A DNA stretch of 55,548 nt, filler included, from Stramenopiles sp. TOSAG23-3 (lineage: Eukaryota): assembly GCA_900128585.1 (NCBI GenBank). It is 4 parts of 4 records of this genome, joined end to end, with 100 filler letters (N's around TTAATTAATTAA, not from the genome) between each part and the next. Parts side by side here need not be neighbours in the genome. Positions count along the whole stretch, not along the records: positions 25,765 to 51,249 come from LT642287.1; 3 more parts are not named here. One strand, 5' to 3'. This document shows, in pieces, positions 7,061 to 37,607 of the stretch. Numbering within the stretch: the stretch's first letter is position 1; each line of letters begins with the position of its first letter. Position numbers and translations under genes: made by a program. The notes beneath the pieces are model-generated. The model searched no databases and was not told the DNA's origin. It saw only the letters and a list, made by a program, of their open reading frames with translations.

Positions 7061-9103
7061 ATGAACTCCCAGACGAGAAAGAAAGGTCCTTTGAAAGGCG
7101 ACCACCAATTGATTGCTGGTGTCCGAGGTAAAAACGACGGTGATCGCATCGACGAATCTCTGGGCCTTGCAGGAGGCCACCACAGCAGCACAACCCCTCC
7201 AAAAGATACAAAAATTCAATACAGCTCAAGGAAAAGCCCAATATCTCGGAAAAGTCCTCGCAGTAGCCCTAGAAGCTCACCGGCAAGGCGAACACCGTCT
7301 CCGCACCATATTCATAAGTCGCACAAGGAGGGCCGAGTGAGTCCCAGAACTCGGGGCTTAAAGTCGACTGGGGCGTACGGGAAGGGTGGCCGGGGCACCA
7401 AGTTGGTGCACAGCTCAGCCCCGGCACACGACGCGAAGGGGACCGTGGGGGGCGGGATTCGCTCTGCGTTTGCCAGTAGTAAAAACTCAAGCAATTCGAT
7501 TTCGTCTTCGAGTGAAGTTAATCAGATATTGTCCAAAGGAAAACGCATTGGAATGCAACACTCTCTTCACAAAACGGTCGGGGAGAACCCTCCACCCGGA
7601 GTTTTCGAAGTGAATGCCCGCCAGAAACCGAGCGCCCTAATCGCGGCGCCTAAAGTCAACCCAAACAATGGGACTGTCGGTGGCGGGACACGCCTTATTA
7701 TGTCGAAGGTGCCAGTGCGTCATCGTAAAACGGGGCGAACGGCGTTGCGTAGCGACCGTGATCGTGAGTTTCTGAACAATCCGATCCCGAAAGGTGAAAG
7801 CATCCTGCCCTGGTTTGCCTCCAACCAAACTGGCGAGGCGGGGACCCAAACGGGGTTGGTTTACAATGCTGACGGAGTCCACCCCGACGTGGAAGCGTAT
7901 TCGCGAATTAAAGATGGGTTTGGGCGGCGCAGGTCCAACTCATGGGGTCCCTCTGCCCGTCGTCGCGCGCTTGCGGCATCTTCTACTGGCAAAACTGCTG
8001 AGAAGGGGCAGAGTGGTGGAAGAAAAAAACATGAAAAGCCGGTGGACCCAAGCGTAGCGGCAACCCCTGGGGGCAAGAATGCCCGGCCCCGCAACGGCAT
8101 GAACTTGGCGTTTACACCAAAGGATTATGCCCCTGCAGGCAAACCTTACTATAAAGAAATATCCATCGAAGACATCGACAAGATGCAAGGAATACTATCT
8201 CAAATGAAGGAGGACATGCTTCGCAAAGAGCAAGATTCTGTGGTGGTCAAGGGTCCGCTGCGAGAAATGCTCGAGCAGCACCAAGAACACTTTGACGACG
8301 TTGGGACGGACCTGGAAATTATCTCAAATTCTGTACATGACGAACACGCGATGTCGCTGGAAAAGTCGCGCCGGCGCGCTAAGTCTGGCCCTGCTGCGCT
8401 CAGGAGAAACTATGGGGACATGAAGCAAGTTTTTGATGCCATGAATGAAATGCAAGGCACACCTGGAAAGAGCCTTCGAGCATCGTTCGAGGAAATAGAA
8501 GAGGAAATTAGAAAAAAGCGGCTCGCGGGAGATGGTAGAACGAATGGAAACGCTGGCCCTTACGCAGTGTACGCGGCGGCGCAGCTGCGACTGCGCACGT
8601 CTTTGGAAGATTCCGGGGCCATCAGTGGTGGCACCGCACCAAACTTTAAAATGTTTCGCTCGAAAAGCACGGATGACGAAGACGCCAATCCGGAGACCTC
8701 CCCCAGAAAGAGTGCAGCAGTCGACCATGAAAATAAAAGCAGCAAAAGCGTGTCCACGGGTACGTCCCCTTTGAAAATTTCTACTCCAAGAAAACCGGAA
8801 AGTCCTTCAGAAGCAGGCTTCGACTTGATAGAACGTCCGTCGTTAGGGGAAGCTTTAAACGAAATTCAGCCATCTTCTGACTTGAGCAAATCTCCTCCCA
8901 AAGTTTCTCGGGTGTTGTCGGACACAGAAATTCCACGATTGAAATTAGATATGTTGAACCTCTCAATCAAAAGTCCGAGAGGTCAAAACTCCTGCAATTC
9001 CCCAGATTTATCGAAGCAAATGCTGGATATTGCAAGTCCAAGGTCTGCATTCTCGAAAACATCTGCACGGAGTACCCTGACAAACAGTTCTTCCGAGAAC
9101 TGA
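7061..9103 (+). CDS. Hypothetical S/P/K/R-rich, largely disordered protein
   Basis: 680-codon ATG-started ORF with coding-like GC against AT-rich flanks; no recognisable domain. Confidence 0.75.
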   Translation: MNSQTRKKGPLKGDHQLIAGVRGKNDGDRIDESLGLAGGHHSSTTPPKDTKIQYSSRKSPISRKSPRSSPRSSPARRTPSPHHIHKSHKEGRVSPRTRGLKSTGAYGKGGRGTKLVHSSAPAHDAKGTVGGGIRSAFASSKNSSNSISSSSEVNQILSKGKRIGMQHSLHKTVGENPPPGVFEVNARQKPSALIAAPKVNPNNGTVGGGTRLIMSKVPVRHRKTGRTALRSDRDREFLNNPIPKGESILPWFASNQTGEAGTQTGLVYNADGVHPDVEAYSRIKDGFGRRRSNSWGPSARRRALAASSTGKTAEKGQSGGRKKHEKPVDPSVAATPGGKNARPRNGMNLAFTPKDYAPAGKPYYKEISIEDIDKMQGILSQMKEDMLRKEQDSVVVKGPLREMLEQHQEHFDDVGTDLEIISNSVHDEHAMSLEKSRRRAKSGPAALRRNYGDMKQVFDAMNEMQGTPGKSLRASFEEIEEEIRKKRLAGDGRTNGNAGPYAVYAAAQLRLRTSLEDSGAISGGTAPNFKMFRSKSTDDEDANPETSPRKSAAVDHENKSSKSVSTGTSPLKISTPRKPESPSEAGFDLIERPSLGEALNEIQPSSDLSKSPPKVSRVLSDTEIPRLKLDMLNLSIKSPRGQNSCNSPDLSKQMLDIASPRSAFSKTSARSTLTNSSSEN

Positions 9104-10208: not shown

Positions 10209-10945
10209 GTTTTAGGTAAGACGTAATTATGCTATTTCCCTTTTAAACTATTTCAATTTCTGACTCATTTTAATTTGATGACAGAACTTTAGTATTATAT
10301 TATATTTTAAATCCAAAAACGAATTATCTGTGTTGCTATATTATTAGCTGTATTATATTAAAACATCGCATTTTCTTTTAAATCCCGAAAAAGGCAAATT
10401 TCATCGTATTGAAACATCGCTCTTTTATAAATTAAGGATATAATTATATATTTTATATTTTATTATCATAAACTTATTGATATGATTAATTTTAAAAGAT
10501 GACCACCTTAATTATCAAAAAGAAACAAAAGAAAGTGCTATTATTTTTTTTATGGATCAAATAAACAATCATATTGTGTGTATGTAAAATCCCTCGTTAT
10601 AGAGTTTCTACTGTGGTTACTACACTAATTAAAGAGAGAATACCATCTCATGTTTCAGCATACGTTGACATATGCTGTGAATGTTTTGTATTTTAAAATG
10701 TTCCCTCTTTCGTAGCATCAACACAACAGGAGGAACTTTTTCTTTAAATCGGACGGACACTCTGGCCACCCGCCGCTGCAAGTAGTTGTGTACAAGAACA
10801 CTCTTCCGTCTCTATGTTAGTTGATTCCAAAGGAATAAAAATGTTTGTAGGTAGGATATAATAACGTCGTTAGTCCTTTTGCTCACCAATTTATATTCAC
10901 ATTATACATATATATATATATACATACGTATATTCTTTGCTGACA

Positions 10946-12769
10946 ATGGATCCGAAAAAGACGGAGGAGTCCCCGAAAGCCCCCCCGCTGCCGCCTGCCA
11001 TCGCCAGCTTGAAACGACAGCGGAACGAGCAAAACTCTTTTGCGTGGTACCAGTATATGATTGTTCCAGAGACTATCAGGAACATAAACATATACAAACT
11101 GAACAAATTTCCGGGATTTGTGCCCGATGATTTCAACACGTTCCAGGACCAACTTCTGGCGTTGGGCGTCGCCAAGTTCATTGACGAAAGGGATCCACCA
11201 GAGTCTATGTCGTTGTCGGACATTGCTGTAAAATTTTATGCATACTTTGTCGGCCGTATGAAAACTGATAGGTTGTTGCACTTACTGACGTTTTCGTTTC
11301 TAAACGAAAGAATACCCCACGACATCTTAAAGAAGTTTAAATTCTTTGAGTGGAAAACCAACTCAAGCACGATAGGGATGACAGGGGCCAAGAAACAGGT
11401 GCAAATCAAGTTTACCAAGTTCTACAAGACTACGCCGTTCCATATCTCTGCCTCCCTGCGCGAGGTGTTCGTCAATTCTAAAAATTACTGGATATCCGGC
11501 AAGCGCGATCGATCGTTGAGCGGGGCCAAGGTAAAGGGTAAGAAATCTTCCTCGAAGAAGAAAAATGCGCTCGGGGAAAGCCCGCTCCTTTGCGAGCTGA
11601 AGTTTGACAAAGTGATCAACGAAGCGCGAGAAATGTTTGTTGTTTCCTGCATTCGAGCGGGAGTAGAAAAGGAGACCATTGCCAAATTCTGCGCCTCCCA
11701 ATTCCTTGGCAGACCAATCAAATCGTGGAACGAAATTCTGATGCCAGACCGAGCCGCCAGCCCGAAGATCTCCACCGTCGCTCTCGCCAGGGATCCATCC
11801 CCAAAGGTGGTCTCGCGCTGGGACTGGACGATGGACCCAAGAGATTATATTTTGAGAACGTGGCGCTTCATGGCGGGCGTGCCCAGCGCAGGCCCAGACA
11901 TGGTGTCCCTCGAACTGTTCCAGAAAGAGATCTTGAGAGAGTACGGCGCGGATGCAATATACTACGTAAAGGACTTTTACAACCCGAGCTTTGTTGATGG
12001 GTTAGTGTACGACCATCCGAAAATGACGGAATTGTTTGGGCCATACAAAGGTCGTGCAAAGCACCTCCTGGATTACTTTAGCTCGGAAAACATTTACGAC
12101 GTTTTCAAGTTCATGTTTAGTGGTGACAATTCCTTGCCGATTGCGTCAAGAGCGGTAACGGCTGAAGGCTTCAAAGTCGAAGCGCGTGCCCGTGTAGTAT
12201 TTTCGCCCTCAAAGCGTTATTTAGCGCTTGTTATTGAGTCTATAACGAACGTCCTTGAATTTGAAAATCCGCAAGAGTTCAAAATAGATGTCTCCAAAGG
12301 CATAAGCAATTCGTTCGCGAACAACGTTCGTGCGTACGTATATGAGTCCATTCGCTTCATGATGGGATATCCTGTAGATTCTGTACCTGATCCCACGTCG
12401 CTCGGGGTGTTTATCAATGATCTAAAGCAGTACAAAACGGACGGTGAACAGGCTATTTTATACCAAGTAATTGATCATCATTTGCCTCGCGACAAATCAG
12501 TGGTGTACGAATCTCCAAGATTCGAAGAACTGTTCGGGCCCCTGGCACGCCGGCACGAGCGATTGGAAAGCGCCCTTGACATTAATACAATTTGGAACGC
12601 CGGTAAGCAGATCTTCCTCGGCAAGGCATTCATGTTTAAGCTGAAAGTGAACACAATTGATAGTACCCGTCTCTGTATTTCGATATATTTTAAACGATCA
12701 ACTTGCGGAAGGTACCATGGACGGGTAATAGAGCTCAAAAAAACCGAACGGGTTGATGATGCGAAGTAA
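10946..12769 (+). CDS. Uncharacterised protein with two internally repeated PAS-like domains
   Basis: Internal repeat R.Y....RFM.G.P...PD..SL..F...AI.Y...VY..P...ELFGP; first copy ends in PAC-like TAEGFKVEARARVV...LVIESIT. Confidence 0.75.
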   Translation: MDPKKTEESPKAPPLPPAIASLKRQRNEQNSFAWYQYMIVPETIRNINIYKLNKFPGFVPDDFNTFQDQLLALGVAKFIDERDPPESMSLSDIAVKFYAYFVGRMKTDRLLHLLTFSFLNERIPHDILKKFKFFEWKTNSSTIGMTGAKKQVQIKFTKFYKTTPFHISASLREVFVNSKNYWISGKRDRSLSGAKVKGKKSSSKKKNALGESPLLCELKFDKVINEAREMFVVSCIRAGVEKETIAKFCASQFLGRPIKSWNEILMPDRAASPKISTVALARDPSPKVVSRWDWTMDPRDYILRTWRFMAGVPSAGPDMVSLELFQKEILREYGADAIYYVKDFYNPSFVDGLVYDHPKMTELFGPYKGRAKHLLDYFSSENIYDVFKFMFSGDNSLPIASRAVTAEGFKVEARARVVFSPSKRYLALVIESITNVLEFENPQEFKIDVSKGISNSFANNVRAYVYESIRFMMGYPVDSVPDPTSLGVFINDLKQYKTDGEQAILYQVIDHHLPRDKSVVYESPRFEELFGPLARRHERLESALDINTIWNAGKQIFLGKAFMFKLKVNTIDSTRLCISIYFKRSTCGRYHGRVIELKKTERVDDAK

Positions 12770-26043: not shown

Positions 26044-27792
26044 TTAACCGTCAGGGTAGATGATTTTGTCGACCATGTGAAGGATTGTTCCGTTCTCCAC
26101 CCTTATGTCCCGCTTTCCATCGATCACACGGACCACTCTTCTTGGCTGATTTCGAGTTCCTAGCCAAAGGACGTACTCCCCGACCTCGTTCAGTCTACAG
26201 TTCATCGTCTGCTCCATGTTCCCACAGAGGAGCATTCCTGGTCCTTGGTTGCCAAGGATGTACAGGTCTTGCATCTGGTAAGGACCCCCAAGGATGTGGG
26301 TTCCCCAACAATCATCTTCCCATGTATCCACGAACTCGTCCAAAAATGCACTGTCGGGGGGTACAAATAACGTCACCCCGTGAAATTGTTCTGGGCGTTC
26401 GTGCACCTGCTCGTGGACGATTTCGAGAAACCGGCCAGCGTCTCCAAAGCCTTTCAACGCTTCCAACAAGGAGGGAACTTTCAAGTTTGCCTCTGCTACT
26501 TTCTCGTTAACAATCTTCTCCGCTACCTCGACCTTCTTCTTGAGAAGCTTTATGCCGCTTTCGAACCGAGCGCTGCTCGCGCCGGGCTTGGTCAAGGCCG
26601 CAACTTTTTGCAGCGCTGCCCCCGCCGCCTTCAGCCTCTTTTCTATGGACTCCAAGTGACACACGGGCCGTGCATCGTCCGTTATGGCCGCCAGGCGATC
26701 CTTGTACTTTCTGTACTCTTTCATCAGCCTAACGTGATTATCCTTCGTCGCACGCTTCTCTCTCCTCGCCTGCGCCTTTGCGGCCTTCTCTTCCCGCTCC
26801 CGCTTATCCTTGCCGAGAGTGCGCCTCGCCTCCCTCAGGCGGCGGTTTTGTCTACAAAAGTAACCGGTGGTGTCAAAGTCTACCCGGCACACCACTTGGT
26901 CGTCGGTGCGGTCGTCGTACAGAATGCCCCCGTTCATTGCATAGTATGCCGTCGAGTACCCTTCGAACGTTTTGAACTGAACGTACGCGTCAAACGTTAG
27001 GGAATCTTCCTGGTCCCTGCTGACCATCTCAAACATTAAGTCTACGGATTTGACAGGACCGAAGCGCATGAAGGCGGCCTGGACGATTATGTGCCCGCGC
27101 TGCGTAAAGTTGAAAAGGCGGTCGTCGGGGGCAGCCCCTAAATCGTTGTCGTCGTCGTCAATGAACCAGATCGCCGGAAGGGAGTACAGAACAAGGGTGT
27201 CCGGTCGCTCCCCCGAGGGCAACTGTTCGAAATACGGTGCACTTGGAATTTTGTGCTGCACTAGCACAGCATGGCGGAAAAAATCACTCCAAGGGTAGTT
27301 GTCCGGGCCTTTTGCCAACAACATGACCTCGTGCTCAAGGGGAGAGGCGAGGTGGACGTGGCTGTAGAACCGAACGCTGGGGGACAACGTTTCCAACGAA
27401 ATTCTTTGCTCTGACTGGCGCGACGAGACTGACCTTGCTTTTGAACTTGGTCTAGGAATGCTCAAATCCTCTGCTTTTCGTTCGCTGTAATGGTCGCCTT
27501 CCTTTTCAGAATAGTCTGCGTCCTCCTCCCCAGCCGTTTCCCCGCTACTTCCGGGCGACGGGGTCACTGGCGAACCCGCCCCGATTTGTTCTTGTTCCTC
27601 GTGCTCTTGGTGCTCCTCCTTTTCTGCTGGAGTCATTGGTCGAGGAATGGAGGAAAGGGGTGTACTAATTCGTTCTGCATTCTTTCCCTCTTCCTGAAAC
27701 ACGCTCTTCTGCCTATGCTGCTCTCCTTTCTCCTCTTTGATTTTCTGTCCGCCAACCTCGTTGCCCTCCGCGAACAAGTCCAAGGCGTCCAT
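26044..27792 (-). CDS. AKAP17A-like RRM protein fused to a C-terminal fasciclin (FAS1)-like domain
   Basis: ERPDTLVLYSLPAIWF, FMRFGPVKSVD, FDAYVQF, VDFDTTGY + coiled coil (AKAP17A-like); VTLFVPPDSAF and ENGTILHMVDKII (FAS1 H1/H2). Confidence 0.78.
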   Translation of the reverse strand: MDALDLFAEGNEVGGQKIKEEKGEQHRQKSVFQEEGKNAERISTPLSSIPRPMTPAEKEEHQEHEEQEQIGAGSPVTPSPGSSGETAGEEDADYSEKEGDHYSERKAEDLSIPRPSSKARSVSSRQSEQRISLETLSPSVRFYSHVHLASPLEHEVMLLAKGPDNYPWSDFFRHAVLVQHKIPSAPYFEQLPSGERPDTLVLYSLPAIWFIDDDDNDLGAAPDDRLFNFTQRGHIIVQAAFMRFGPVKSVDLMFEMVSRDQEDSLTFDAYVQFKTFEGYSTAYYAMNGGILYDDRTDDQVVCRVDFDTTGYFCRQNRRLREARRTLGKDKREREEKAAKAQARREKRATKDNHVRLMKEYRKYKDRLAAITDDARPVCHLESIEKRLKAAGAALQKVAALTKPGASSARFESGIKLLKKKVEVAEKIVNEKVAEANLKVPSLLEALKGFGDAGRFLEIVHEQVHERPEQFHGVTLFVPPDSAFLDEFVDTWEDDCWGTHILGGPYQMQDLYILGNQGPGMLLCGNMEQTMNCRLNEVGEYVLWLGTRNQPRRVVRVIDGKRDIRVENGTILHMVDKIIYPDG

Positions 27793-28374: not shown

Positions 28375-30036
28375 ATGCTCAGTAGAGTGAACGTAGTTGC
28401 CTCGTGGTTCACGGGAGGAGTTCGCGTCCGGAAGAGGGGGTTTTGCTCTGCCCTGTTGGAGAAGTTGGAAGTTCATGCTGAAACGAACGGATCCTCAACT
28501 GCCATTATTGAAAATTTTGTGGGCTCCTCGAGGAAGGAAACGAACTACAAGGCACTTTGGGAGAAAGTCAAACTTACTGCCGACGCCCTCAGCCAGGCTG
28601 AGCCTTCGCCGGGCCGAACGTCCCCCAGAAGCAACCGGGTCGGATTTTTATGTCAACCGGGCAGCAACTATGTGATTACCCTCTTTGCCATTTGGAGGTG
28701 TGGTTACGTCGCCGTTCCACTGTCGCCCGCTCACCCTGCGAAAGAGCTGGACTACATCATCAATGATGGCGACGTTGATTTCGTTCTTGCAGAGCCAGAG
28801 TTTATCGAGAGCGAGAATCACCTGCAACCCCTTGCCCTGGAGAACCAACCTGTGCTGGACGTGGAGGGTTTGATACAGGCTGCAAACGCTGAGGAAGAAT
28901 CGACCCTGTCGCGGAAGAATGCAGCGCCAGGACGTGCTGCTGCGTACTTGATATACACCAGTGGTACGACAGGGCGCCCAAAGGGAGTCGTGCACACCCA
29001 CAAAGCCATTGAAGTGCAGGTGAACGACTTGGTCTCAGCGTGGAAATGGCAAAACACAGACCACATTCTCCACTTTCTTCCTTTGCACCATGTCCATGGT
29101 GTCGTAAATAAACTCCTGTGCTGCCTGTATGCGGGCGCTGTCTGCGAATTTATCGATAGCACACCCGAATCGATCCTTTCACGCTTGGTAGGGGCCAATG
29201 CCCTGGGCGACATAAATTTATTCATGGCTGTCCCAACAGTCTATGCGCGCTTGATAGAAGCTTACCATAAGCTCCCTAAGAAAGAGCAGGAAAAAGTGTA
29301 CACTTCGTGCCAGAACATGCGCCTGATGGTCAGCGGCTCTGCTGCGTTGCCAACAGGGGTAATGAAAGAGTGGGAGAGAATAAGTGGTCACACGCTGCTG
29401 GAGCGTTACGGCATGACAGAATTCTGCATGGCCCTGAGCAACCCGTTGACACCTGTGGAAGAACGGCACCCGGGCTGTGTGGGTCTACCTCTTCCATCCG
29501 TGGAGGTAAGAATATGTGGTACGTCGAACCCCTCCGATGTCGCCGAAGTTTCCCCTGGAACGTCGGGCGAGCTTCGTGTCAAAGGGAAAGGGGTGTTTAA
29601 GATTTACCACAACCGTCCGGAAGAAACAGAGAGCGCGTTTGACGATGAAGGCTACTTTATGACGGGAGACATCGCCCGGTACAACAGTGATTTGGAAACG
29701 TACGAAATTTTGGGTCGTGCAAGTGTGGACATAATTAAGTCTGGCGGCTACAAAATCAGCGCGTTGGAAGTGGAGCGGCATTTGCTCGACCACCCCTGCA
29801 TTGCTGAGGTGTCCGTCATTGGCCTGGTAGACCCAACATGGGGGGAAAATGTTGTCGCGGTGGTGCGACTCACCGAACAGTCGTCTGGTTTGGAGTTGGA
29901 CGATTTGCGTCAGTGGGCATCAAAGCGAATTGCGTCGTACAAACTTCCAACAAAAATGCACATTGTAGAAGCTATTCAAAAAAACGCAATTGGAAAAATC
30001 AACAAAAAAGAATTGGCAAAGAATTTTGAAATATAA
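28375..30036 (+). CDS. ACSF3: Malonyl-CoA synthetase-like acyl-CoA ligase (ACSF3/MatB) with a mitochondrial-type presequence
   Basis: YTSGTTGRPKG, LPLHHVHG, FMAVPTVY, RLMVSGSAAL, LERYGMTE, ILGRASVDIIKSGGYKISALEVE. Confidence 0.9.
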   Translation: MLSRVNVVASWFTGGVRVRKRGFCSALLEKLEVHAETNGSSTAIIENFVGSSRKETNYKALWEKVKLTADALSQAEPSPGRTSPRSNRVGFLCQPGSNYVITLFAIWRCGYVAVPLSPAHPAKELDYIINDGDVDFVLAEPEFIESENHLQPLALENQPVLDVEGLIQAANAEEESTLSRKNAAPGRAAAYLIYTSGTTGRPKGVVHTHKAIEVQVNDLVSAWKWQNTDHILHFLPLHHVHGVVNKLLCCLYAGAVCEFIDSTPESILSRLVGANALGDINLFMAVPTVYARLIEAYHKLPKKEQEKVYTSCQNMRLMVSGSAALPTGVMKEWERISGHTLLERYGMTEFCMALSNPLTPVEERHPGCVGLPLPSVEVRICGTSNPSDVAEVSPGTSGELRVKGKGVFKIYHNRPEETESAFDDEGYFMTGDIARYNSDLETYEILGRASVDIIKSGGYKISALEVERHLLDHPCIAEVSVIGLVDPTWGENVVAVVRLTEQSSGLELDDLRQWASKRIASYKLPTKMHIVEAIQKNAIGKINKKELAKNFEI

Positions 30037-30779: not shown

Positions 30780-33700
30780 ATGTTAAAGAAACACCATGAA
30801 AAAATCCGTGGTGGTGTTCGAAGTTTTATCCACTTCCTTACCCGGTTGTACATATCTGACGTGGAAGTGAGGGGGCTCCGAAATTTGCAACGATTGCAAA
30901 GCGGGAGCAGCGGGGCCATTTTTGCTGGTAATCATCCCTCCGGACTGCTCGACCCAATGGTTGTCATGACTGCCCTTCCAGACAAGAAAATTAGTTCAGT
31001 GGCAAAGTACGGCCTGTTCAAAGCCCCCGTCGTGGGCTTCTTCCTTCAAGTTATGCAAAGCGTGCCGGTTGCGCAGCCCTACGATCATGACCTCCCCCCA
31101 GAAAAGCAGATGCCAAAGGAGGAGCGTCAGAAAATGAATGAGCAGATGTTCAAGACCGTCACGCAACGTTTGGTTGACGGTGTGAACGTGTGCATTTTTC
31201 CCGAGGGGACGTGCCATTCCACCCCACAAATCAAGGCGCTGAAAGTTGGGACAGCGCGGATGGCGCTGCAAGTATCGGCCGGAACGAACGGGGAGATGCG
31301 AATACCCATTTTTCCTGTGGGGATAACGTACTCCGTTCCGAGTGGTGCAAGGTTTAGAGCAAAGGTTTTGGTAGACATTGGGCACCCCGTTGAAGTAACG
31401 GATGAACTGTTGGCAATGTACCAAAGTGGAGACCCTTCTGCCGCCCGTTTGGCAGAGGAAAAGATGACGGGCCGTATCGATCGCCACCTCAGCGACGTGA
31501 CCGTGCGTGTGCCGGACTGGGTTGTGGAGCTTGAAAAGCACTGCAAAGTCAGGGGCTTGGCCAAGCCTGTTTATTCAACCGTGCGTAAAGGCAAGAAATG
31601 GTACGAGCAGCAGGGGGTTGCCTTGGGGAAATTCGTGTTTGGGGACCAACAGGAGGGAGCCGTCGGGGTCAGGGAAGACTTTCAGCAGTACGACTCTGAC
31701 AAAGACGGGGCCCTGACGGCCGCTGAACTTTCAACGATGATGGGTGAAAAATTGGGCGCTACGGTGTCCATCAAACAAGCAGAAAAGATGATTTCTGATT
31801 TTTCAAAAAATGGCGAAAAAACCTTATCTCTGCTAGAGTTTGAAACCATGGTCGGCATGGAGCGAAGGAAAGAACAGTGCCGCATCGAGGTAGGGGATGC
31901 CGCGTTCACCAGCGTCCCCCACTACGAAACGGTGGCGGAAGCCCGAAGGCGAATGCGAAAAACGCAGGCGGACAGTGCCATGCAGTCTGGCGCCATCGCG
32001 GCCGCAAAAATTGTTCCAGAAAAACCCAGCATTGAGCTGCAACGAGATGCGGCCCGCAATGCACTGTTTAGTCTGGCAAAACTGCAGCCGACGCCAAGCG
32101 AGTGGGACTTCATTAACTTAATGCACTTATCGCGCCGCATCTACAAGCCCCACTCTGCAAAGTTAACGCTGGGGCAGTATGCCGACTTGACTCGGTCGTT
32201 CGCCAAAGTAGCTGTGCGACGAATTGACGATCCTGTCTTTCAAAAGCTTTGGAAAAGTGTCATGGGGTACAACAGCAAATTGGGAGAGCTGGGTTTGACG
32301 GACAAGTACGTCGCTCAGCATGCTAGGGGGTCCGACCCGCTCAATGAACGGTTGAACAAACTGCGCGAGAAGGCCCGCTTGACGATCGCAACGACCTTTT
32401 TGAAGCAAATGGTCGGGCTCGCGGGCGGCATCGCGCACAGTCCAATTGTAATTCTGGCGCAGGTCGCTGGGACTAAAATGGGCGTGGATGAGTTCGGGGA
32501 CCGAAGTGTTGAGGCCACCATGAGAATAGTTGCGAGCCTTGGAGGCATCGTGCTATATTACCCCACAGTTGCAATTGCCGTCAGCGCGTACTCTGGCTCG
32601 TTCCTGCTCGGGCTGTCCGTGATCCCCGCCATGGCACTCTCGGGCTATACATGGATACATCAGCGACCTATGCAAAACGCCGTAAAGCTGCTAAAAGGGT
32701 CTTTAAAACTTCTAACGAGCAAAGACACTGTTGATGGGCTGCGCCTGGAACGATCTCTGCTTCAATCTGAACTGCGGGACTTCGCCGACGCCCACGCGGC
32801 GCCCGGCGTGAAAGGCTGGTGGAAAAACCCAGAGAAGTACATTTCCAAAATCAAAGAAAAGCGAGTGCAGGAGACAATGGAATTTCTTGAAGGAGCCCAA
32901 CGGGTAACGCAACAGGGCATAGAGCAAGCGGCGTTGGTCCCATTGACGATTCCGCTGTCCAATCGTTTTAAACGCATCGAGAACGAGCGGGCCGTGCTTA
33001 CACTGAAACAATCCCAAGGGAACGAGAACGTTTTGCTCTGGATCCCGGGCCGAAACGACAGTTTCTTTCACGTCCACATCTTGGACAGAGTGCTAAATGC
33101 TGGCTTTGATTTGGCTGTCTTGGACCTGCGGCGCTGCGGTCGCAGCAAAATCGATGCAGACGGGACAACCCCTCTGGTAGAAGAATTTCTGGCCCACGAC
33201 TCTTACGACTTTGCGGAGTACCACGAAGAATTCGACTCGGCTTTGTCTTTTCTCAAAAGGCCCACGCCGCTCTCTCCCACACTGGATGTTGCCGCCGGCA
33301 ACGGCTGCGGGAAGTACTATGAAAATATCGTCGTGTACGCGCACTCTACAGGCGGGCTGGTTGCAGCACAATACGGTGCAGACGGTAGTGACAACAGTGG
33401 TGCATGGCGGGGAGCAATCGATGGGTATATCTTCAACTCGCCATTTTGGTCGTGGAATCTACCCTGGTACAACAAGCTCCTGCTCGAAAAGCTCGAGAAT
33501 GCAATGAGGGCTGACCTAGTCGATCCGGGCACGAAAATGTCGGTGGGGGGAGCTCCATCAGAGTACTCCATGGACTTGTACAAGACGTACGGTTTTACGC
33601 ACCCGCTTTTGAAAAGCCTGAAAGACCTGCATGTCACTGCTGGATGGATGAACGCCGTCAAAAGTGTCCAAACCCAACTTTACGACGGAAGACTCGTTTT

Positions 33701-33935
33701 GAAGAAACCCTCGTTGGTTATGTCGACTCCAGCCGATGAAGTGCTGGTGAACGACGATATTGAACAACTTTCGCAACACCTCTTGTGGGAAGAGAACCCG
33801 GATCTGTTTCAATACAAGCAAGTGGGCAGTAGTGAAGCTGAACCGTCTGCCCACGACCTGTTGGCTGCTCCAAGCGCCATTCGCGTCGATGAAGCCATGA
33901 GGCATATCGAACAGTTTTTAAACCGTCACTTTTAA
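30780..33935 (+). CDS. Multidomain lipid enzyme: PlsC/GPAT (Sct1/Gpt2-like) acyltransferase with dsRBD-like/EF-hand insert, TM region and C-terminal alpha/beta hydrolase
   Basis: NHPSGLLD, IFPEGTCH, LKVGTARMAL; EF loop DSDKDGALTAAE; WIPGRND, DLRRCGRS, AHSTGG, FNSPF, HD. Confidence 0.88.
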   Translation: MLKKHHEKIRGGVRSFIHFLTRLYISDVEVRGLRNLQRLQSGSSGAIFAGNHPSGLLDPMVVMTALPDKKISSVAKYGLFKAPVVGFFLQVMQSVPVAQPYDHDLPPEKQMPKEERQKMNEQMFKTVTQRLVDGVNVCIFPEGTCHSTPQIKALKVGTARMALQVSAGTNGEMRIPIFPVGITYSVPSGARFRAKVLVDIGHPVEVTDELLAMYQSGDPSAARLAEEKMTGRIDRHLSDVTVRVPDWVVELEKHCKVRGLAKPVYSTVRKGKKWYEQQGVALGKFVFGDQQEGAVGVREDFQQYDSDKDGALTAAELSTMMGEKLGATVSIKQAEKMISDFSKNGEKTLSLLEFETMVGMERRKEQCRIEVGDAAFTSVPHYETVAEARRRMRKTQADSAMQSGAIAAAKIVPEKPSIELQRDAARNALFSLAKLQPTPSEWDFINLMHLSRRIYKPHSAKLTLGQYADLTRSFAKVAVRRIDDPVFQKLWKSVMGYNSKLGELGLTDKYVAQHARGSDPLNERLNKLREKARLTIATTFLKQMVGLAGGIAHSPIVILAQVAGTKMGVDEFGDRSVEATMRIVASLGGIVLYYPTVAIAVSAYSGSFLLGLSVIPAMALSGYTWIHQRPMQNAVKLLKGSLKLLTSKDTVDGLRLERSLLQSELRDFADAHAAPGVKGWWKNPEKYISKIKEKRVQETMEFLEGAQRVTQQGIEQAALVPLTIPLSNRFKRIENERAVLTLKQSQGNENVLLWIPGRNDSFFHVHILDRVLNAGFDLAVLDLRRCGRSKIDADGTTPLVEEFLAHDSYDFAEYHEEFDSALSFLKRPTPLSPTLDVAAGNGCGKYYENIVVYAHSTGGLVAAQYGADGSDNSGAWRGAIDGYIFNSPFWSWNLPWYNKLLLEKLENAMRADLVDPGTKMSVGGAPSEYSMDLYKTYGFTHPLLKSLKDLHVTAGWMNAVKSVQTQLYDGRLVLKKPSLVMSTPADEVLVNDDIEQLSQHLLWEENPDLFQYKQVGSSEAEPSAHDLLAAPSAIRVDEAMRHIEQFLNRHF

Positions 33936-34490: not shown

Positions 34491-34625
34491 CACATACATA
34501 CTCAATCGTAGAGCGATTTTTAGAGATTTAAGAACACGCGTGTACCTTAACGGAAACACGCGGTCGTAAAAAAATTATTATTTACTCGCGTGTTACATTT
34601 TAATCTTCATATACCAGAGGCGCCC

Positions 34626-36653
34626 TTACCACGCACTGTTGTCGGCCCCGCCGCCGCTACTGTTGCGGTTGTAGCCGCCACCACCGTAGCCGCCGCCGCC
34701 ACCACCGTAGCCGCCGCCGCCACCACCGTAGCCGCCGCCACCACCACCACCTCCACCGTAGCCGCCGCCGCCGCCGCCTCGGCCGCCGCCGCCTCGGCCG
34801 CCGCCGCTGCGATAATCTTTCGCACCAAAATTGCTTTTCTTATTTCTACCACCCCCGCGTCCACGTCCGTAGGAGCGCGATTGCATCATTTGGTCCAACC
34901 ACTGAGGAACCTCGAGCTTGTTCTCGGTCAACAATTCATGAAGGTCTTTGCAGACGTTTCGGTTCTTGTCGTTCATCATGGCCAAGGCGGTGCCTTTGGA
35001 GCCGATCCTACCCGTGCGCCCAATGCGATGCACGTAATCGTCAATGTTGGTGGGCATGTCGTAGTTAATGACATGCGTAACGCCTTTAATATCCAACCCA
35101 CGCGCCGCGACGTCGGTCGCGACCATGATCGGGGTCTGCCCGTTTCGAAACGTGTTCAACGCGTCTTCGCGCTCCCGCTGGGAACGGTCGCCGTGAATAG
35201 ACGTTGTGGGAAACCCCTCGCGGATGAGCGTGTTCTCGAGCGAGTCAGCGCCGCGCTTGGTCATGACGAAAATCAAAACCAAACCTTCGTCGATCGTGTT
35301 CAGGTATTTGATCAGAAACGGCTGCTTGTGCTGCTCCTCTACGAACTCGATTTTCTGGTCGACGTCTGTGTTGGCAGCACCAACCCGGCCTACGGCGAGG
35401 AAGACGTAGTTATTCAAAAAATCACCAGCAAGCTGTTGAATCGTGGATGGGAATGTGGCACTGAACATAAACGTCAAGCGTTCCTCTTTAATGGGCAAGT
35501 CCTCTTCTTCCACAATTTTGCGAATCTGGGGCTCGAAACCCATGTCGAGCATACGGTCGGCTTCGTCCAGAATCAACAGCCGGCAGCACGCCAACGAGAT
35601 TCGGCCACGCTCGATCAGGTCGCCGAGGCGCCCTGGGGTCGCGGTGAGAATGTCGCAGCCACGCTCCAGCTCCCTCATCTGCTGCTTGATGTCGGTGCCG
35701 CCGTACACTACCACGGTGGAGAGTCCGGTCATGTAACAAAACTTTCTGGCCTCGTCGTGGATTTGGCAGGCCAATTCGCGGGTCGGGGCCATGATGAGCG
35801 CGCCCGGGTACGCCTTGGGGTACCGGGAACGGTACCGTTCCTCTGGTCGCTCCCTGGGGCCTTTTCGCAGCATGACCATGATGGCCGGGAACAAAAACCC
35901 GGCAGTTTTTCCAGACCCAGTCTGAGCACACGCCATTAAGTCGCGGTCTATAGCTCCGATGGGTATACTGTACTTCTGCACTGGGGTCGGCCTGTTGTAC
36001 TTGGCGAGGACAGTGTTTGCGTACAAACTCTCGCCCAAAATCTCAGCAGTGTACTCATTGATCGGTTCCGGGCACCCTTCTCCACCGACCTCAATGGGAA
36101 TGTTGTCGTACGTGTCAAAGTTGATACCGGTGTTTTCTACGGTGCCAAAGAGCTCGGTTTCAAGGCGCTGGTCGCGGCGTAAGCTTCCGTGGTAGCCCAG
36201 CTCGTTCTGTCGCCCCGAACCGCCCCCATTCCGGCCGTAACCGTTCCGGCCGCCGCCGCCGCCGCGGCGGTCGTCGCGCCTGCGGTCGTTGTAACCCCGG
36301 CCGCCTCCATCATTCCCCCGGTCCCAACGGCTGTTTCCGGATTGTGGTGGGCCACGGTTTCCGCCCCGCTGTTGGAAGCCGCCGCCACCGCCGCCGTTGC
36401 CCCCTTGGAAGCCGCCCCCTCGGTTTCCACCACGGAAGCCGCCGTCGTTGCGCCCTCGGTTTCCACCGTGGAAGCCGCCGCCGTTGCCCCCTTGGTTGCC
36501 CCCTTGGTTGCCCCCCTGGTTGCCCCCCTGGTTGCCCCCCTGGTTGCCCCCCCGGTTGCCCCCCTGGCCGTTTCCTCCGCTACCTTGCGATTGTTTATTT
36601 CTCAAGGCTGGTGGTACATACTTGCTGTTGCCTGTGCTTGCAAAACTAGACAT
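34626..36653 (-). CDS. DDX3: DEAD-box RNA helicase Ded1/DDX3
   Basis: [65 protein letters not shown] tails; first ATG 36653. Confidence 0.96.
36481..36570 (-). repeat. 12-bp coding minisatellite (GGNQ)n in the DDX3 N-terminus
   Basis: Repeated GGTTGCCCCCCT units on the + strand. Confidence 0.9.
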
Positions 36654-37607
36654 AAAACGTGTGAAGTCAAAAAATAATAGATACTTGTTTGTTGAGTTGA
36701 TGTTAATAATCGTTAAAGAAAAGTCCTTTCCGTATGCTTCAATTCTCTTTCCTTTTTCTTCTTCGCTAAAACTAACTAACGTGTACGTACGTAACCAAAT
36801 CATCTAAATCAATTACGTAAATAATAATTCCAAAAGTATTAATTATATATACAATACAGTTTCCTTCCTTCCCTTTTGGCTTTTGGCCCTTCCTTTTCCT
36901 TCCTCCTCCCTTTTGTTGGCCTTTTATGGTTCTTACTTCTTACTACTACGTACGAGTAAACGTACTAGTTATTATATTTATACTTTATCTTTACTTCACT
37001 CCTTCTTTCTTTCTTTCTTTCTTTTAATTATATAATAAATAAATACTTCCAGATAGATACAGTATAATAAGGAAGGATAATGAAGGAAGAAGGAATTCTA
37101 TTTCAATGAATTTAGGGAAAAAGATTAAATCTCTGATAATAATGAATATATATTGTTGTTATAATTATCCTTAAGGTATGAAACGCTTATGCTATTTCAT
37201 TACTAATTTAAAACGAAAAGAAGAAAACCATTAAATTTTTTTATTTTTTTATTTCTTTCGTTCCTCTGCTGTATTTCTATTATTATTTGTACTTAATGAA
37301 TAAATAAATAGAGACTTAGTATACGAATCTCTTAAAAGATTGCTTTTTATTGGTTGGTTGTGCGTGTCGTGGAAAAATAATAAGGAAATTATTAAAATAT
37401 AAAAATATATTTAGTATACAAATAACGTATAAATTAAAGAAGAAATGAAACCAAAATTGAGTTTTTATTAAAACATTTATCCATTGAACAATACCCAAAA
37501 AAGGAAGTCAAAAATGTTAAGGAATGAAATTAAAAAAAGAATTCTTGTTAAATATTATATTGACCCTGATCTTAACCCTAATTATGTCCTTCTTCAAGAA
37601 GCGAAGC

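Follow-up and report, generated by a model that had tools for sequence, protein, structure and literature searches.

Acylating and deacylating-type domains occur together in one chain in the plant phytyl ester synthases (Hydrolase_4 with DAGAT) and in bacterial fusions of Hydrolase_4 with the acyltransferase family PF01553. PF01553-type acyltransferases are also combined with EF-hand Ca2+ motifs in LPCAT1 and LPCAT2, where the EF-hands come after the catalytic domain. Among domains of the double-stranded RNA-binding kind (dsRBDs), those of type B, such as Staufen dsRBD5, Loquacious (Loqs) dsRBD3, and DCL4 dsRBD2, bind proteins rather than RNA. In this work, we analysed a gene from Stramenopiles sp. 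TOSAG23-3 (GCA_900128585.1) in a stretch of 55,548 nucleotides, filler included, which we refer to as the window; the gene lies in the part of it that comes from LT642287.1. The single-exon gene occupies positions 30780–33935 on the + strand, as do all of its features given below, and its predicted product combines a Sct1/Gpt2-like glycerol-3-phosphate acyltransferase (GPAT), an insert with a dsRBD fold, an EF-hand pair within that insert, and a C-terminal monoglyceride-lipase-like hydrolase.

The catalytic, helical, and membrane regions of the protein are colinear with those of P0141, a 749-residue acyltransferase of the fungus Bifiguratus adelaidae, which we take to be of the Sct1/Gpt2 (Gat2/Gat1) type from its source name, its length, and general knowledge of these enzymes. 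The window protein, however, adds a 194-residue dsRBD/EF-hand insert where P0141 has none, and a hydrolase of ~335 residues replaces the fungal C-terminal tail. In contrast to LPCAT1/2, its EF-hands are nested in a dsRBD that is nested in the enzyme, its acyltransferase is of another subfamily, and it carries a hydrolase, which LPCAT1/2 do not have. The plant phytyl ester synthases differ in domain order and in acyltransferase family, and neither the plant nor the bacterial hydrolase-acyltransferase fusions have a dsRBD, an EF-hand, or a Sct1-like membrane region. These fusions were the nearest clusters to the whole protein in the ESM Atlas, with scores of 0.76–0.82, scores below 0.9 being leads only.

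Nested domains in the acyltransferase half

The acyltransferase catalytic domain comprises residues 1–247 (30780–31520), as assigned from PF01553, motif conservation, and BLASTP alignments with P0141 and with P0056, a 458-residue relative named GPAT/DHAPAT by JGI. Pfam Acyltransferase (PF01553) matches residues 28–182 with an E value of 3e-18 (66 bits against a cut-off of 23), and weak support comes from the NCBIfam model AGP_acyltrn (E 1.9e-12). The HX4D motif of block I, NHPSGLLD, is found at residues 51–58 (30930–30953) and the FPEG motif of block III at residues 140–143 (31197–31208). In an alignment of 14 sequences, N51, H52, and D58 are conserved at 90% or more and FPEG is invariant. The four acyltransferase motifs fit the pattern that Table 1 of PMC6353168 gives for Gat1p and Gat2p, namely H-x4-DP, V-x-x-P-Q/Y, FPEG-x-x-H, and VP-x-G-x-x-Y. 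Residues 442–716 (32103–32927) correspond to the helical and membrane region of Sct1/Gpt2-like enzymes, as judged from BLASTP to P0141 (324–477) and P0056 (214–448), hydropathy, and long helices in the model; hydrophobic windows of 19 residues lie at residues 544–565 and 581–626, and a conserved GDRSVEATM is encoded at 32496–32522. By sequence, we assign the scaffold as a Sct1/Gpt2-like acyltransferase with a helical, hydrophobic membrane region. A scan of GTDB genomes with P0056 returned only distant bacterial PlsC-type matches, at three loci and over its residues 3–147.

The borders of the insert could be placed with the two relatives. BLASTP against P0141 gave three colinear segments (E 1e-16, 4e-12, and 5e-8), including query residues 123–247 aligned with 204–324 and query residues 442–594 aligned with 324–477 (E 4e-12), and both flanks of the insert meet at a single residue of P0141, residue 324. 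In P0056, "PDW" runs straight into a helix with the sequence ...ARRLYKP, and query residues 431–677 align with 214–448 (E 1e-17). The corresponding flanks in the window protein are VTVRVPDW (residues 240–247) and LMHLSRRIYKP (447–457), the latter followed by LTLGQYADLTRSF (462–474). Since the flanks are adjacent in both relatives, residues 248–441 (31521–32102) represent a 194-residue insert in a Sct1/Gpt2-like scaffold. A first-pass annotation of this DNA had described the two flanks as adjacent in Sct1/Gpt2-type GPATs, which the alignments bear out, and its insert bounds of 31515–32100 (~195 residues) are refined here to those given above.

An AlphaFold2 model of residues 236–450, built from a 27-row alignment with a mean predicted local distance difference test score (pLDDT) of 79, has the predicted topology α-β-[EF pair]-β-β-α. 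Its core elements are a helix at residues 247–257, strands at 264–269, 364–371, and 374–377, and a helix at 418–432 (H12–22, E29–35, E129–136, E139–142, and H183–197 in model numbering), with block pLDDT values of 95–98. Along the chain, a helix and a strand come first in the model; beyond a disordered linker follow the four helices of the EF-hands, then two strands, a basic helix, and the last helix. Helix α1 and strand β1 are assigned to residues 248–270 (31521–31589) from this model, an alignment with the DUS2 profile, and the hhalign register with the Escherichia coli RNase III dsRBD; WVVELEKHCKVRGLAKPVYS spans residues 247–266, and the block reaches a pLDDT of 97–98. The low-confidence linker at residues 271–297 (31590–31670; pLDDT <50) lies in the β1–β2 loop and is the site of a Met-Arg indel. 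Strands β2 and β3, with the basic residues RRK ahead of them, fall within residues 362–384 (31863–31931; block pLDDT 97), which include CRIEVGDAAF (367–376). An extra basic helix (ETVAEARRRMRK...), modelled at residues 385–403, and a loop fill residues 385–416 (31932–32027) between β3 and the last helix. The C-terminal helix α2, which contains QRDAARNALFSL (421–432), and the return to the acyltransferase scaffold make up residues 417–441 (32028–32102; block pLDDT 95).

Both structure and sequence searches point to a dsRBD fold. In VIA, a search of 48,161 chains that is independent of Foldseek, dsRBD proteins account for 41 of the 50 best rows (Z 8.6–6.1, 60–82 residues aligned), and these rows cross the EF pair, run to about model residue 200, and often cover the whole target domain. 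Examples are TRBP2 and DCL4 dsRBD2 (Z 8.6), HYL1 (8.4), Xlrbpa (8.0, with 60/60 residues aligned), Staufen dsRBD5 and Loqs dsRBD3 (both 7.9), and the α-β-β-β-α dsRBD of DUS2 (7.2). Titles of 38 of the 41 name a dsRBD, RNase III, Dicer, or DGCR8-type protein, and we take the other three (DHX29 and two mitoribosome chains) to be dsRBD-bearing as well. A profile of six family segments that have no EF-hands gave eight matches in the PDB at E ≤10, all of them dsRBD chains: six DUS2 dsRBDs (E 5e-4 to 1.7e-3), one of which is a RIKEN entry that presumably represents mouse Dus2, followed by RDE-4 (0.36) and RNase III (2.1). Because the VIA list is uniform and the sequence match is independent of it, the call of a dsRBD fold is firm, and the dsRBD-like insert suggested by the first-pass annotation is borne out by profile and predicted structure alike. 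With Foldseek, the insert model returned calmodulin-type matches only (best E 2.3e-3, none ≤1e-3), and the insert alone fell into an EF-hand cluster of the ESM Atlas (score 0.82). The EF pair dominates the Foldseek comparison, so that the dsRBD surfaced only in the independent search. In hhalign, the RNase III dsRBD of E. coli aligned over α1–β2 only (E 0.051, probability 1%), and this comparison served for register only.

The EF-hand pair is assigned to residues 298–361 (31671–31862), within the β1–β2 loop of the predicted dsRBD fold, from PF13499, the four modelled helices, Foldseek, and VIA. Pfam EF-hand_7 (PF13499) matches residues 301–358 (E 2.8e-8, 34.4 bits against a cut-off of 30), and the helices lie at model residues 59–68, 79–90, 96–106, and 116–123. 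The remaining nine of the 50 best VIA rows are EF-hand proteins (Z 6.1–7.0), confined to model residues 56–128, and the structural matches of the pair comprise calmodulins, found with Foldseek, and also centrin. A canonical EF loop has 12 residues with the pattern D-x-D/N-x-D/N/S-G-x-hydrophobic-x-x-x-E. Loop 1, DSDKDGALTAAE (residues 305–316, 31692–31727), fits it at all positions and is still canonical in relatives of 85% and 67% identity (P0003 and P0004), while loop 2, DFSKNGEKTLSLLE (residues 340–353, 31797–31838), has 14 residues and is degenerate. The EF insert has a net charge of −6, compared with +8 for the dsRBD core. Taken as predicted from sequence and model, the acyltransferase half is a three-level nest, in which the acyltransferase holds the dsRBD-fold insert and the insert holds the EF-hand pair; two EF-hands nested in a dsRBD-like insert is also what the first-pass annotation had proposed.

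Close inspection of the 14-sequence alignment revealed that the segments PDW..EL...C....P.Y, V.V.VG..F.S, and RQAAR.AFF.L are kept in the query and in 13/13 homologs. F376 and S378 are invariant or nearly so, as are A424, A425, A428, and F430, which also reach at least 90% in a set of 28 sequences. One homolog (P0017) lacks part of helix 1. The β1–β2 stretch ranges from 3 to 93 residues across the 14 members and has no conserved residue; other members carry unrelated low-complexity insertions of 33–81 residues, rich in His, Gly, or Ser, at this loop. Judged from these sequences, the β1–β2 loop is an insertion hot spot. A hypervariable loop that holds a whole EF pair, as well as the extra basic helix between β3 and the last helix, sets the insert apart from the DUS2 and type B dsRBDs, as does its location in a lipid enzyme rather than in an RNA-pathway protein.

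The hydrolase half, the intact gene, and its family

Residues 717–1051 (32928–33932) are assigned to a monoglyceride-lipase-like α/β hydrolase from Foldseek matches, near-cut-off Pfam matches, and a conserved triad. In the Foldseek search with the whole-protein model (mean pLDDT 79.5), Mycobacterium tuberculosis Rv0183 came first (7ozm/6eic, E 6e-10 to 1.5e-9, template modelling score normalised by target, TM(target), 0.74–0.75), followed by yeast Yju3p and human MGLL (4zxf, 3hju). Monoglyceride lipases of three kingdoms fill all of the ten best rows and 22 of the 26 leading ones. Rv0183, Yju3p, and MGLL together span E 6e-10 to 5e-9 and TM(target) 0.66–0.75, and share the Ser-Asp-His triad and the HS-x-G nucleophile elbow with the window domain; the latter, however, is only 12–17% identical to them and is fused behind a membrane-bound acyltransferase. 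The putative triad consists of Ser856 (33345), Asp986 (33735), and His1025 (33852), assigned by motif position rather than by model geometry, with AHSTGG at residues 854–859 and SAHD at 1023–1026. Across the 14 sequences, no variation is seen at H855, S856, and G858, and D986 and H1025 are conserved at 90% or more. A precomputed Pfam list assigns PF12146 to the 100% cluster and to 22/25 homolog clusters. The first-pass annotation was right about a C-terminal serine hydrolase, but its lysophospholipase-like label needs correction: the NCBIfam lysophospholipase L2 model reaches only E 0.061, whereas the predicted fold, an α/β hydrolase with a cap, is nearest to monoglyceride lipases. Stand-alone relatives of the hydrolase domain exist, one of which (P0143) carries an N-terminal C2 domain, a Ca2+/lipid-binding module. 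By its sequence, this C2 domain is a second, independent tie of the hydrolase type to a Ca2+/membrane module.

The gene is real, expressed, and conserved. From the ATG at 30780 to the end of the stop codon at 33935, the open reading frame (ORF) has 1051 codons plus the stop, with 3153 nt free of in-frame stops. This agrees with the uninterrupted ORF reported in the first-pass annotation, and every motif quoted there was found at its place in the translation. The same ORF is present in independent assemblies. The protein is found again in a cluster of 12 members with sources in ENA, JGI, Logan, and EukProt; a cluster copy is identical at 1048/1053 aligned positions, a two-residue gap counted in, and full-length copies of 1053 residues sit on several separate contigs, one of them of 43 kb. 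Such recurrence across sources is far beyond chance. An 85% ortholog (L005, 1079–4240) is again one unbroken ORF, of 1053 codons, on a 32-kb contig. Contigs from RNA libraries (four runs from four studies) are colinear with the ORF at 95–100% identity, without joints, and bridge both insert borders and the membrane-hydrolase border (records 2, 3, 4, 13, and 25). It should be noted that these are assembled contigs rather than raw reads, and they show presence but do not define where a transcript ends. The full ORF is covered by none of the contigs on its own, and parts are uncovered in single runs, which is not evidence of absence. A fused, more distant relative (P0027) is a Trinity transcript model. 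Against the 85% ortholog, the ratio of nonsynonymous to synonymous substitution rates (dN/dS, Nei-Gojobori) is 0.079 overall, with dS near 1 and noise in the short regions. By part, the acyltransferase has 0.038 and the hydrolase 0.079, while the ratio reaches 0.127 in the EF pair and 0.139 in the dsRBD core. The low ratio in every part indicates that all parts are under purifying selection.

We also noticed a 6-nt insertion at 31652/31653 that adds Met-Arg in the disordered linker ahead of EF-hand 1. Other assemblies (P0002) carry it, as does one contig of RNA run X5, and the indel is an in-frame population variant.

Of the 25 homologs found at E ≤1e-3 in a search of 90% clusters, 20 have PF01553 and PF12146 together. 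PF13499 is present in only 3/25, which are the cluster of the window protein itself, the 85% cluster, and the 67% cluster. An exhaustive search of 1.84 billion representatives returned 43 proteins at E ≤1e-30. The closest named relative is a member of the 85% cluster that EukProt labels 'Stramenopile-MAST_4', and among the fused relatives that bear a name are a Triparma laevis protein and the model CFRG4904T1 of the ichthyosporean Creolimax. Compared at the sequence level, the combination of acyltransferase, dsRBD, and hydrolase defines a small but widespread, conserved protist family, whereas the EF-hand nest was added late and in a single lineage. The first-pass annotation knew of no described protein with this architecture. 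This stands as far as the literature is concerned, where a full-text search, supplements aside, found no paper on a dsRBD within a GPAT/PlsC enzyme or on the GPAT-hydrolase fusion seen here. It does not stand for sequence databases, where the fusion with a dsRBD is a protist family of known sequences with automatic names: JGI calls several of them '1-acyl-sn-glycerol-3-phosphate acyltransferase/alpha-beta hydrolase superfamily...', and UniRef also names members automatically. The GPATs listed in the parts of a diatom triacylglycerol review that we consulted are given without a hydrolase fusion. The Aurantiochytrium GPAT PLAT2 was considered as a family member and rejected, as its source describes a GPAT3/4 type. 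Two EukProt proteins (P0019 and P0024; g3628.t1 and g3629.t1) have consecutive gene numbers in one data set, which suggests tandem paralogues. In another protein, P0026 (975 residues), a related PF01553 acyltransferase is joined to a C92 permuted papain-like amidase (PF05708) in place of the α/β hydrolase.

Proposed role and ligand of the dsRBD-fold module

We propose, with a probability of roughly 0.55, that in this marine stramenopile the protein works as a bifunctional glycerolipid enzyme anchored in the membrane, with its dsRBD-fold domain serving as a Ca2+-responsive docking or regulatory module. The acyltransferase would make lysophosphatidic acid, and the hydrolase would strip the single acyl chain from monoacylglycerol or a lysophospholipid. 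Both enzymes would thereby share one monoacyl-glycerolipid pool, and for the first step of glycerolipid synthesis one polypeptide would set or edit both flux and acyl composition. The predicted dsRBD-fold domain occupies a joint on the acyltransferase surface that holds no residues in relatives, and it is kept through the fusion family; this basic domain may act as the docking or regulatory module on the acyltransferase. Ca2+ on EF-hand 1 may reshape the loop by which classical dsRBDs contact their ligand, making the module Ca2+-responsive. By analogy, this would parallel LPCAT1, an acyltransferase that is inhibited by Ca2+ and has an EF-hand-type Ca2+-binding motif (PMC3439698).

Several points weigh against this proposal. 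All of its functions derive from homology and models, and the active sites could lie on opposite faces of the membrane, an arrangement that would argue against a shared substrate pool. Single-sequence PDB searches found no useful solved relative of the acyltransferase half (PlsC 5kym, E 0.075) and no solved relative of the hydrolase half, for which the best match was a cytochrome c (E 0.78). Pfam Hydrolase_4 (PF12146) over residues 845–1000 scores 25.9 bits, about 1 bit short of its cut-off of 27. According to the method's own note, Z values of 7–8 in VIA can be reached by unrelated models. The Pfam dsrm model of the dsRBD family (PF00035) matched only 1/6 of the EF-less segments (E 0.13, 13 bits against a cut-off of 23), and since this is below significance, no source annotates the dsRBD. 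Finally, EF loop 2 is off the canonical pattern, and its position 1 varies among three relatives.

An assembly or gene-model artefact that fuses two or three neighbouring genes into one long ORF is very improbable. It could draw on the lack of any RNA-library contig that covers the full ORF in the four runs, which consist of contigs instead of raw reads, but it would have to account for 3153 nt without a stop, full-length copies of 1053 residues on many independent contigs and from many sources, an intact 85% ortholog, and at least 20 fused relatives, including the named Triparma protein, the Creolimax model, and the Trinity transcript. RNA-library contigs also cross the insert borders and the membrane-hydrolase border without joints, and purifying selection acts across all parts; the chimeric join that the first-pass annotation had named as a possible refutation was found in none of the independent assemblies, the ortholog, or the contigs. 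More open, and still unlikely, is the idea that the C-terminal domain is no glycerolipid hydrolase partnering the acyltransferase but might be a thioesterase, for acyl-CoA or another substrate, an enzyme that hydrolyses an unrelated ester, or a non-catalytic scaffold or lipid-droplet anchor. An α/β-hydrolase fold leaves the substrate unfixed, the Pfam families are below their cut-offs (including Abhydrolase_6, residues 753–915, 24.7 bits against 26.3), and Foldseek also lists, at E 4e-8 to 5e-7, a PETase, DcsB, which is a thioesterase, and esterases of the feruloyl and chlorogenic kinds. These rows, however, come behind a top ten made up entirely of monoglyceride lipases, the triad and nucleophile elbow are kept family-wide, and the fusion to a GPAT and the relative with a C2 domain point to lipids.

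The ligand of the dsRBD-fold module is harder to assign. A KKxAK-type motif is a feature of helix α2 of dsRBDs; here the last helix starts with S-I-E-L-Q and does not have it. The core, with its charge of +8, is net positive in 12/14 members, the two shortest having 0 and −1; Lys or Arg is present within three residues ahead of β2 in 12/14 members, and the post-β3 segment is net positive in 12/14 as well. RNA contacts of human Dus2 (hDus2) described in PMC9775027 include T369, K371, E376, and R379 in α1, R397 at the end of the β1–β2 loop, and K419, K420, and Q424 at the start of α2. We mapped them through the DUS2 profile alignment with an inferred numbering offset: E376 corresponds to Lys253, a family-variable position, in agreement with the E. 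coli RNase III register, R397 falls on the basic stretch ahead of β2, and the α2 lysines fall on the post-β3 segment. From this comparison of sequences, only part of the canonical dsRNA-contact positions is kept, so they speak neither for nor against RNA binding. Control by Ca2+ and RNA, raised as possible in the first-pass annotation, is a conjecture. A true RNA-binding dsRBD, which would bind dsRNA, a tRNA-like RNA, or ribosomal RNA and tether or regulate the lipid enzyme, with the EF pair making binding Ca2+-dependent, is a possibility we consider rather doubtful. It is favoured by the tRNA-binding DUS2 dsRBD as the best sequence relative, by the equivalents of R397 and the α2 lysines on segments that are basic in most members, and by the charge of the core, but the lysine in place of the α1 glutamate, the variable and unconserved β1–β2 loop, the missing KKxAK-type motif, the two uncharged or acidic short members, the subthreshold Pfam dsrm score, and a literature search that gave no lipid enzyme with an RNA-binding dsRBD all count against it. 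As a ligand of the module, RNA is placed at the same modest odds, and a protein or an acidic-membrane partner is somewhat likelier, at a little under even chances. For a basic surface next to a membrane enzyme whose product is an acidic lipid, binding of the membrane or of a partner protein is equally conceivable. It is improbable that Ca2+ switches RNA binding and RNA binding then tips the balance between GPAT and lipase, which would make the protein an RNA- and Ca2+-gated lipid enzyme, a kind for which no counterpart is described; in that reading, a Ca2+ sensor has taken the place of the dsRBD's ligand-contact loop in this lineage.

Genomic neighbourhood and significance

The window is gene-dense eukaryotic nuclear DNA, with genes for ERGIC and L-type lectin proteins, DEAD-box helicases, mitochondrial carriers, GrpE, sedlin, and an ODAD1-like protein; no Rfam family was found in it. 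Directly upstream of the GPAT-lipase gene, on the same strand, lies a gene for an AMP-binding, acyl-CoA-synthetase-like protein of 553 residues (28375–30036, +). On its contig, the 85% ortholog has other neighbours on both sides and no such gene upstream, so the adjacency looks fortuitous and we dropped a functional linkage by synteny. A DEAD-box helicase of 725 residues (34626–36803, −) is flanked at either terminus by a long low-complexity tail rich in Gly, Asn, and Arg. An opposite-strand ORF of 449 residues (34590–35939) and several Ala/Pro-rich ORFs look like shadows of the helicase repeats. Pfam at E ≤1e-5 gave no family for the ORFs at 7061–9103 (+, 680 residues), 10937–12769 (+, 610 residues), and 26044–27792 (−, 582 residues).

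All four building blocks of the GPAT-lipase protein are textbook domains, but a literature search gave no paper that describes their arrangement. Each of the 14 aligned sequences keeps the predicted dsRBD fold within a lipid acyltransferase; those with names come from stramenopiles (MAST-4 and Triparma) and the ichthyosporean Creolimax. Because Pfam is blind to it, public annotations miss the domain. If the module binds RNA, it would directly link RNA to glycerolipid synthesis at its first committed step. Binding of a protein or the membrane would make it a clear natural example of a dsRBD redeployed beyond RNA biology, and also a domain-in-domain-in-domain insertion with all partners folded and under purifying selection. 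The GPAT-lipase fusion by itself suggests that these abundant marine grazers, which are uncultured, have a cycle of making and breaking monoacyl lipids built into one protein.

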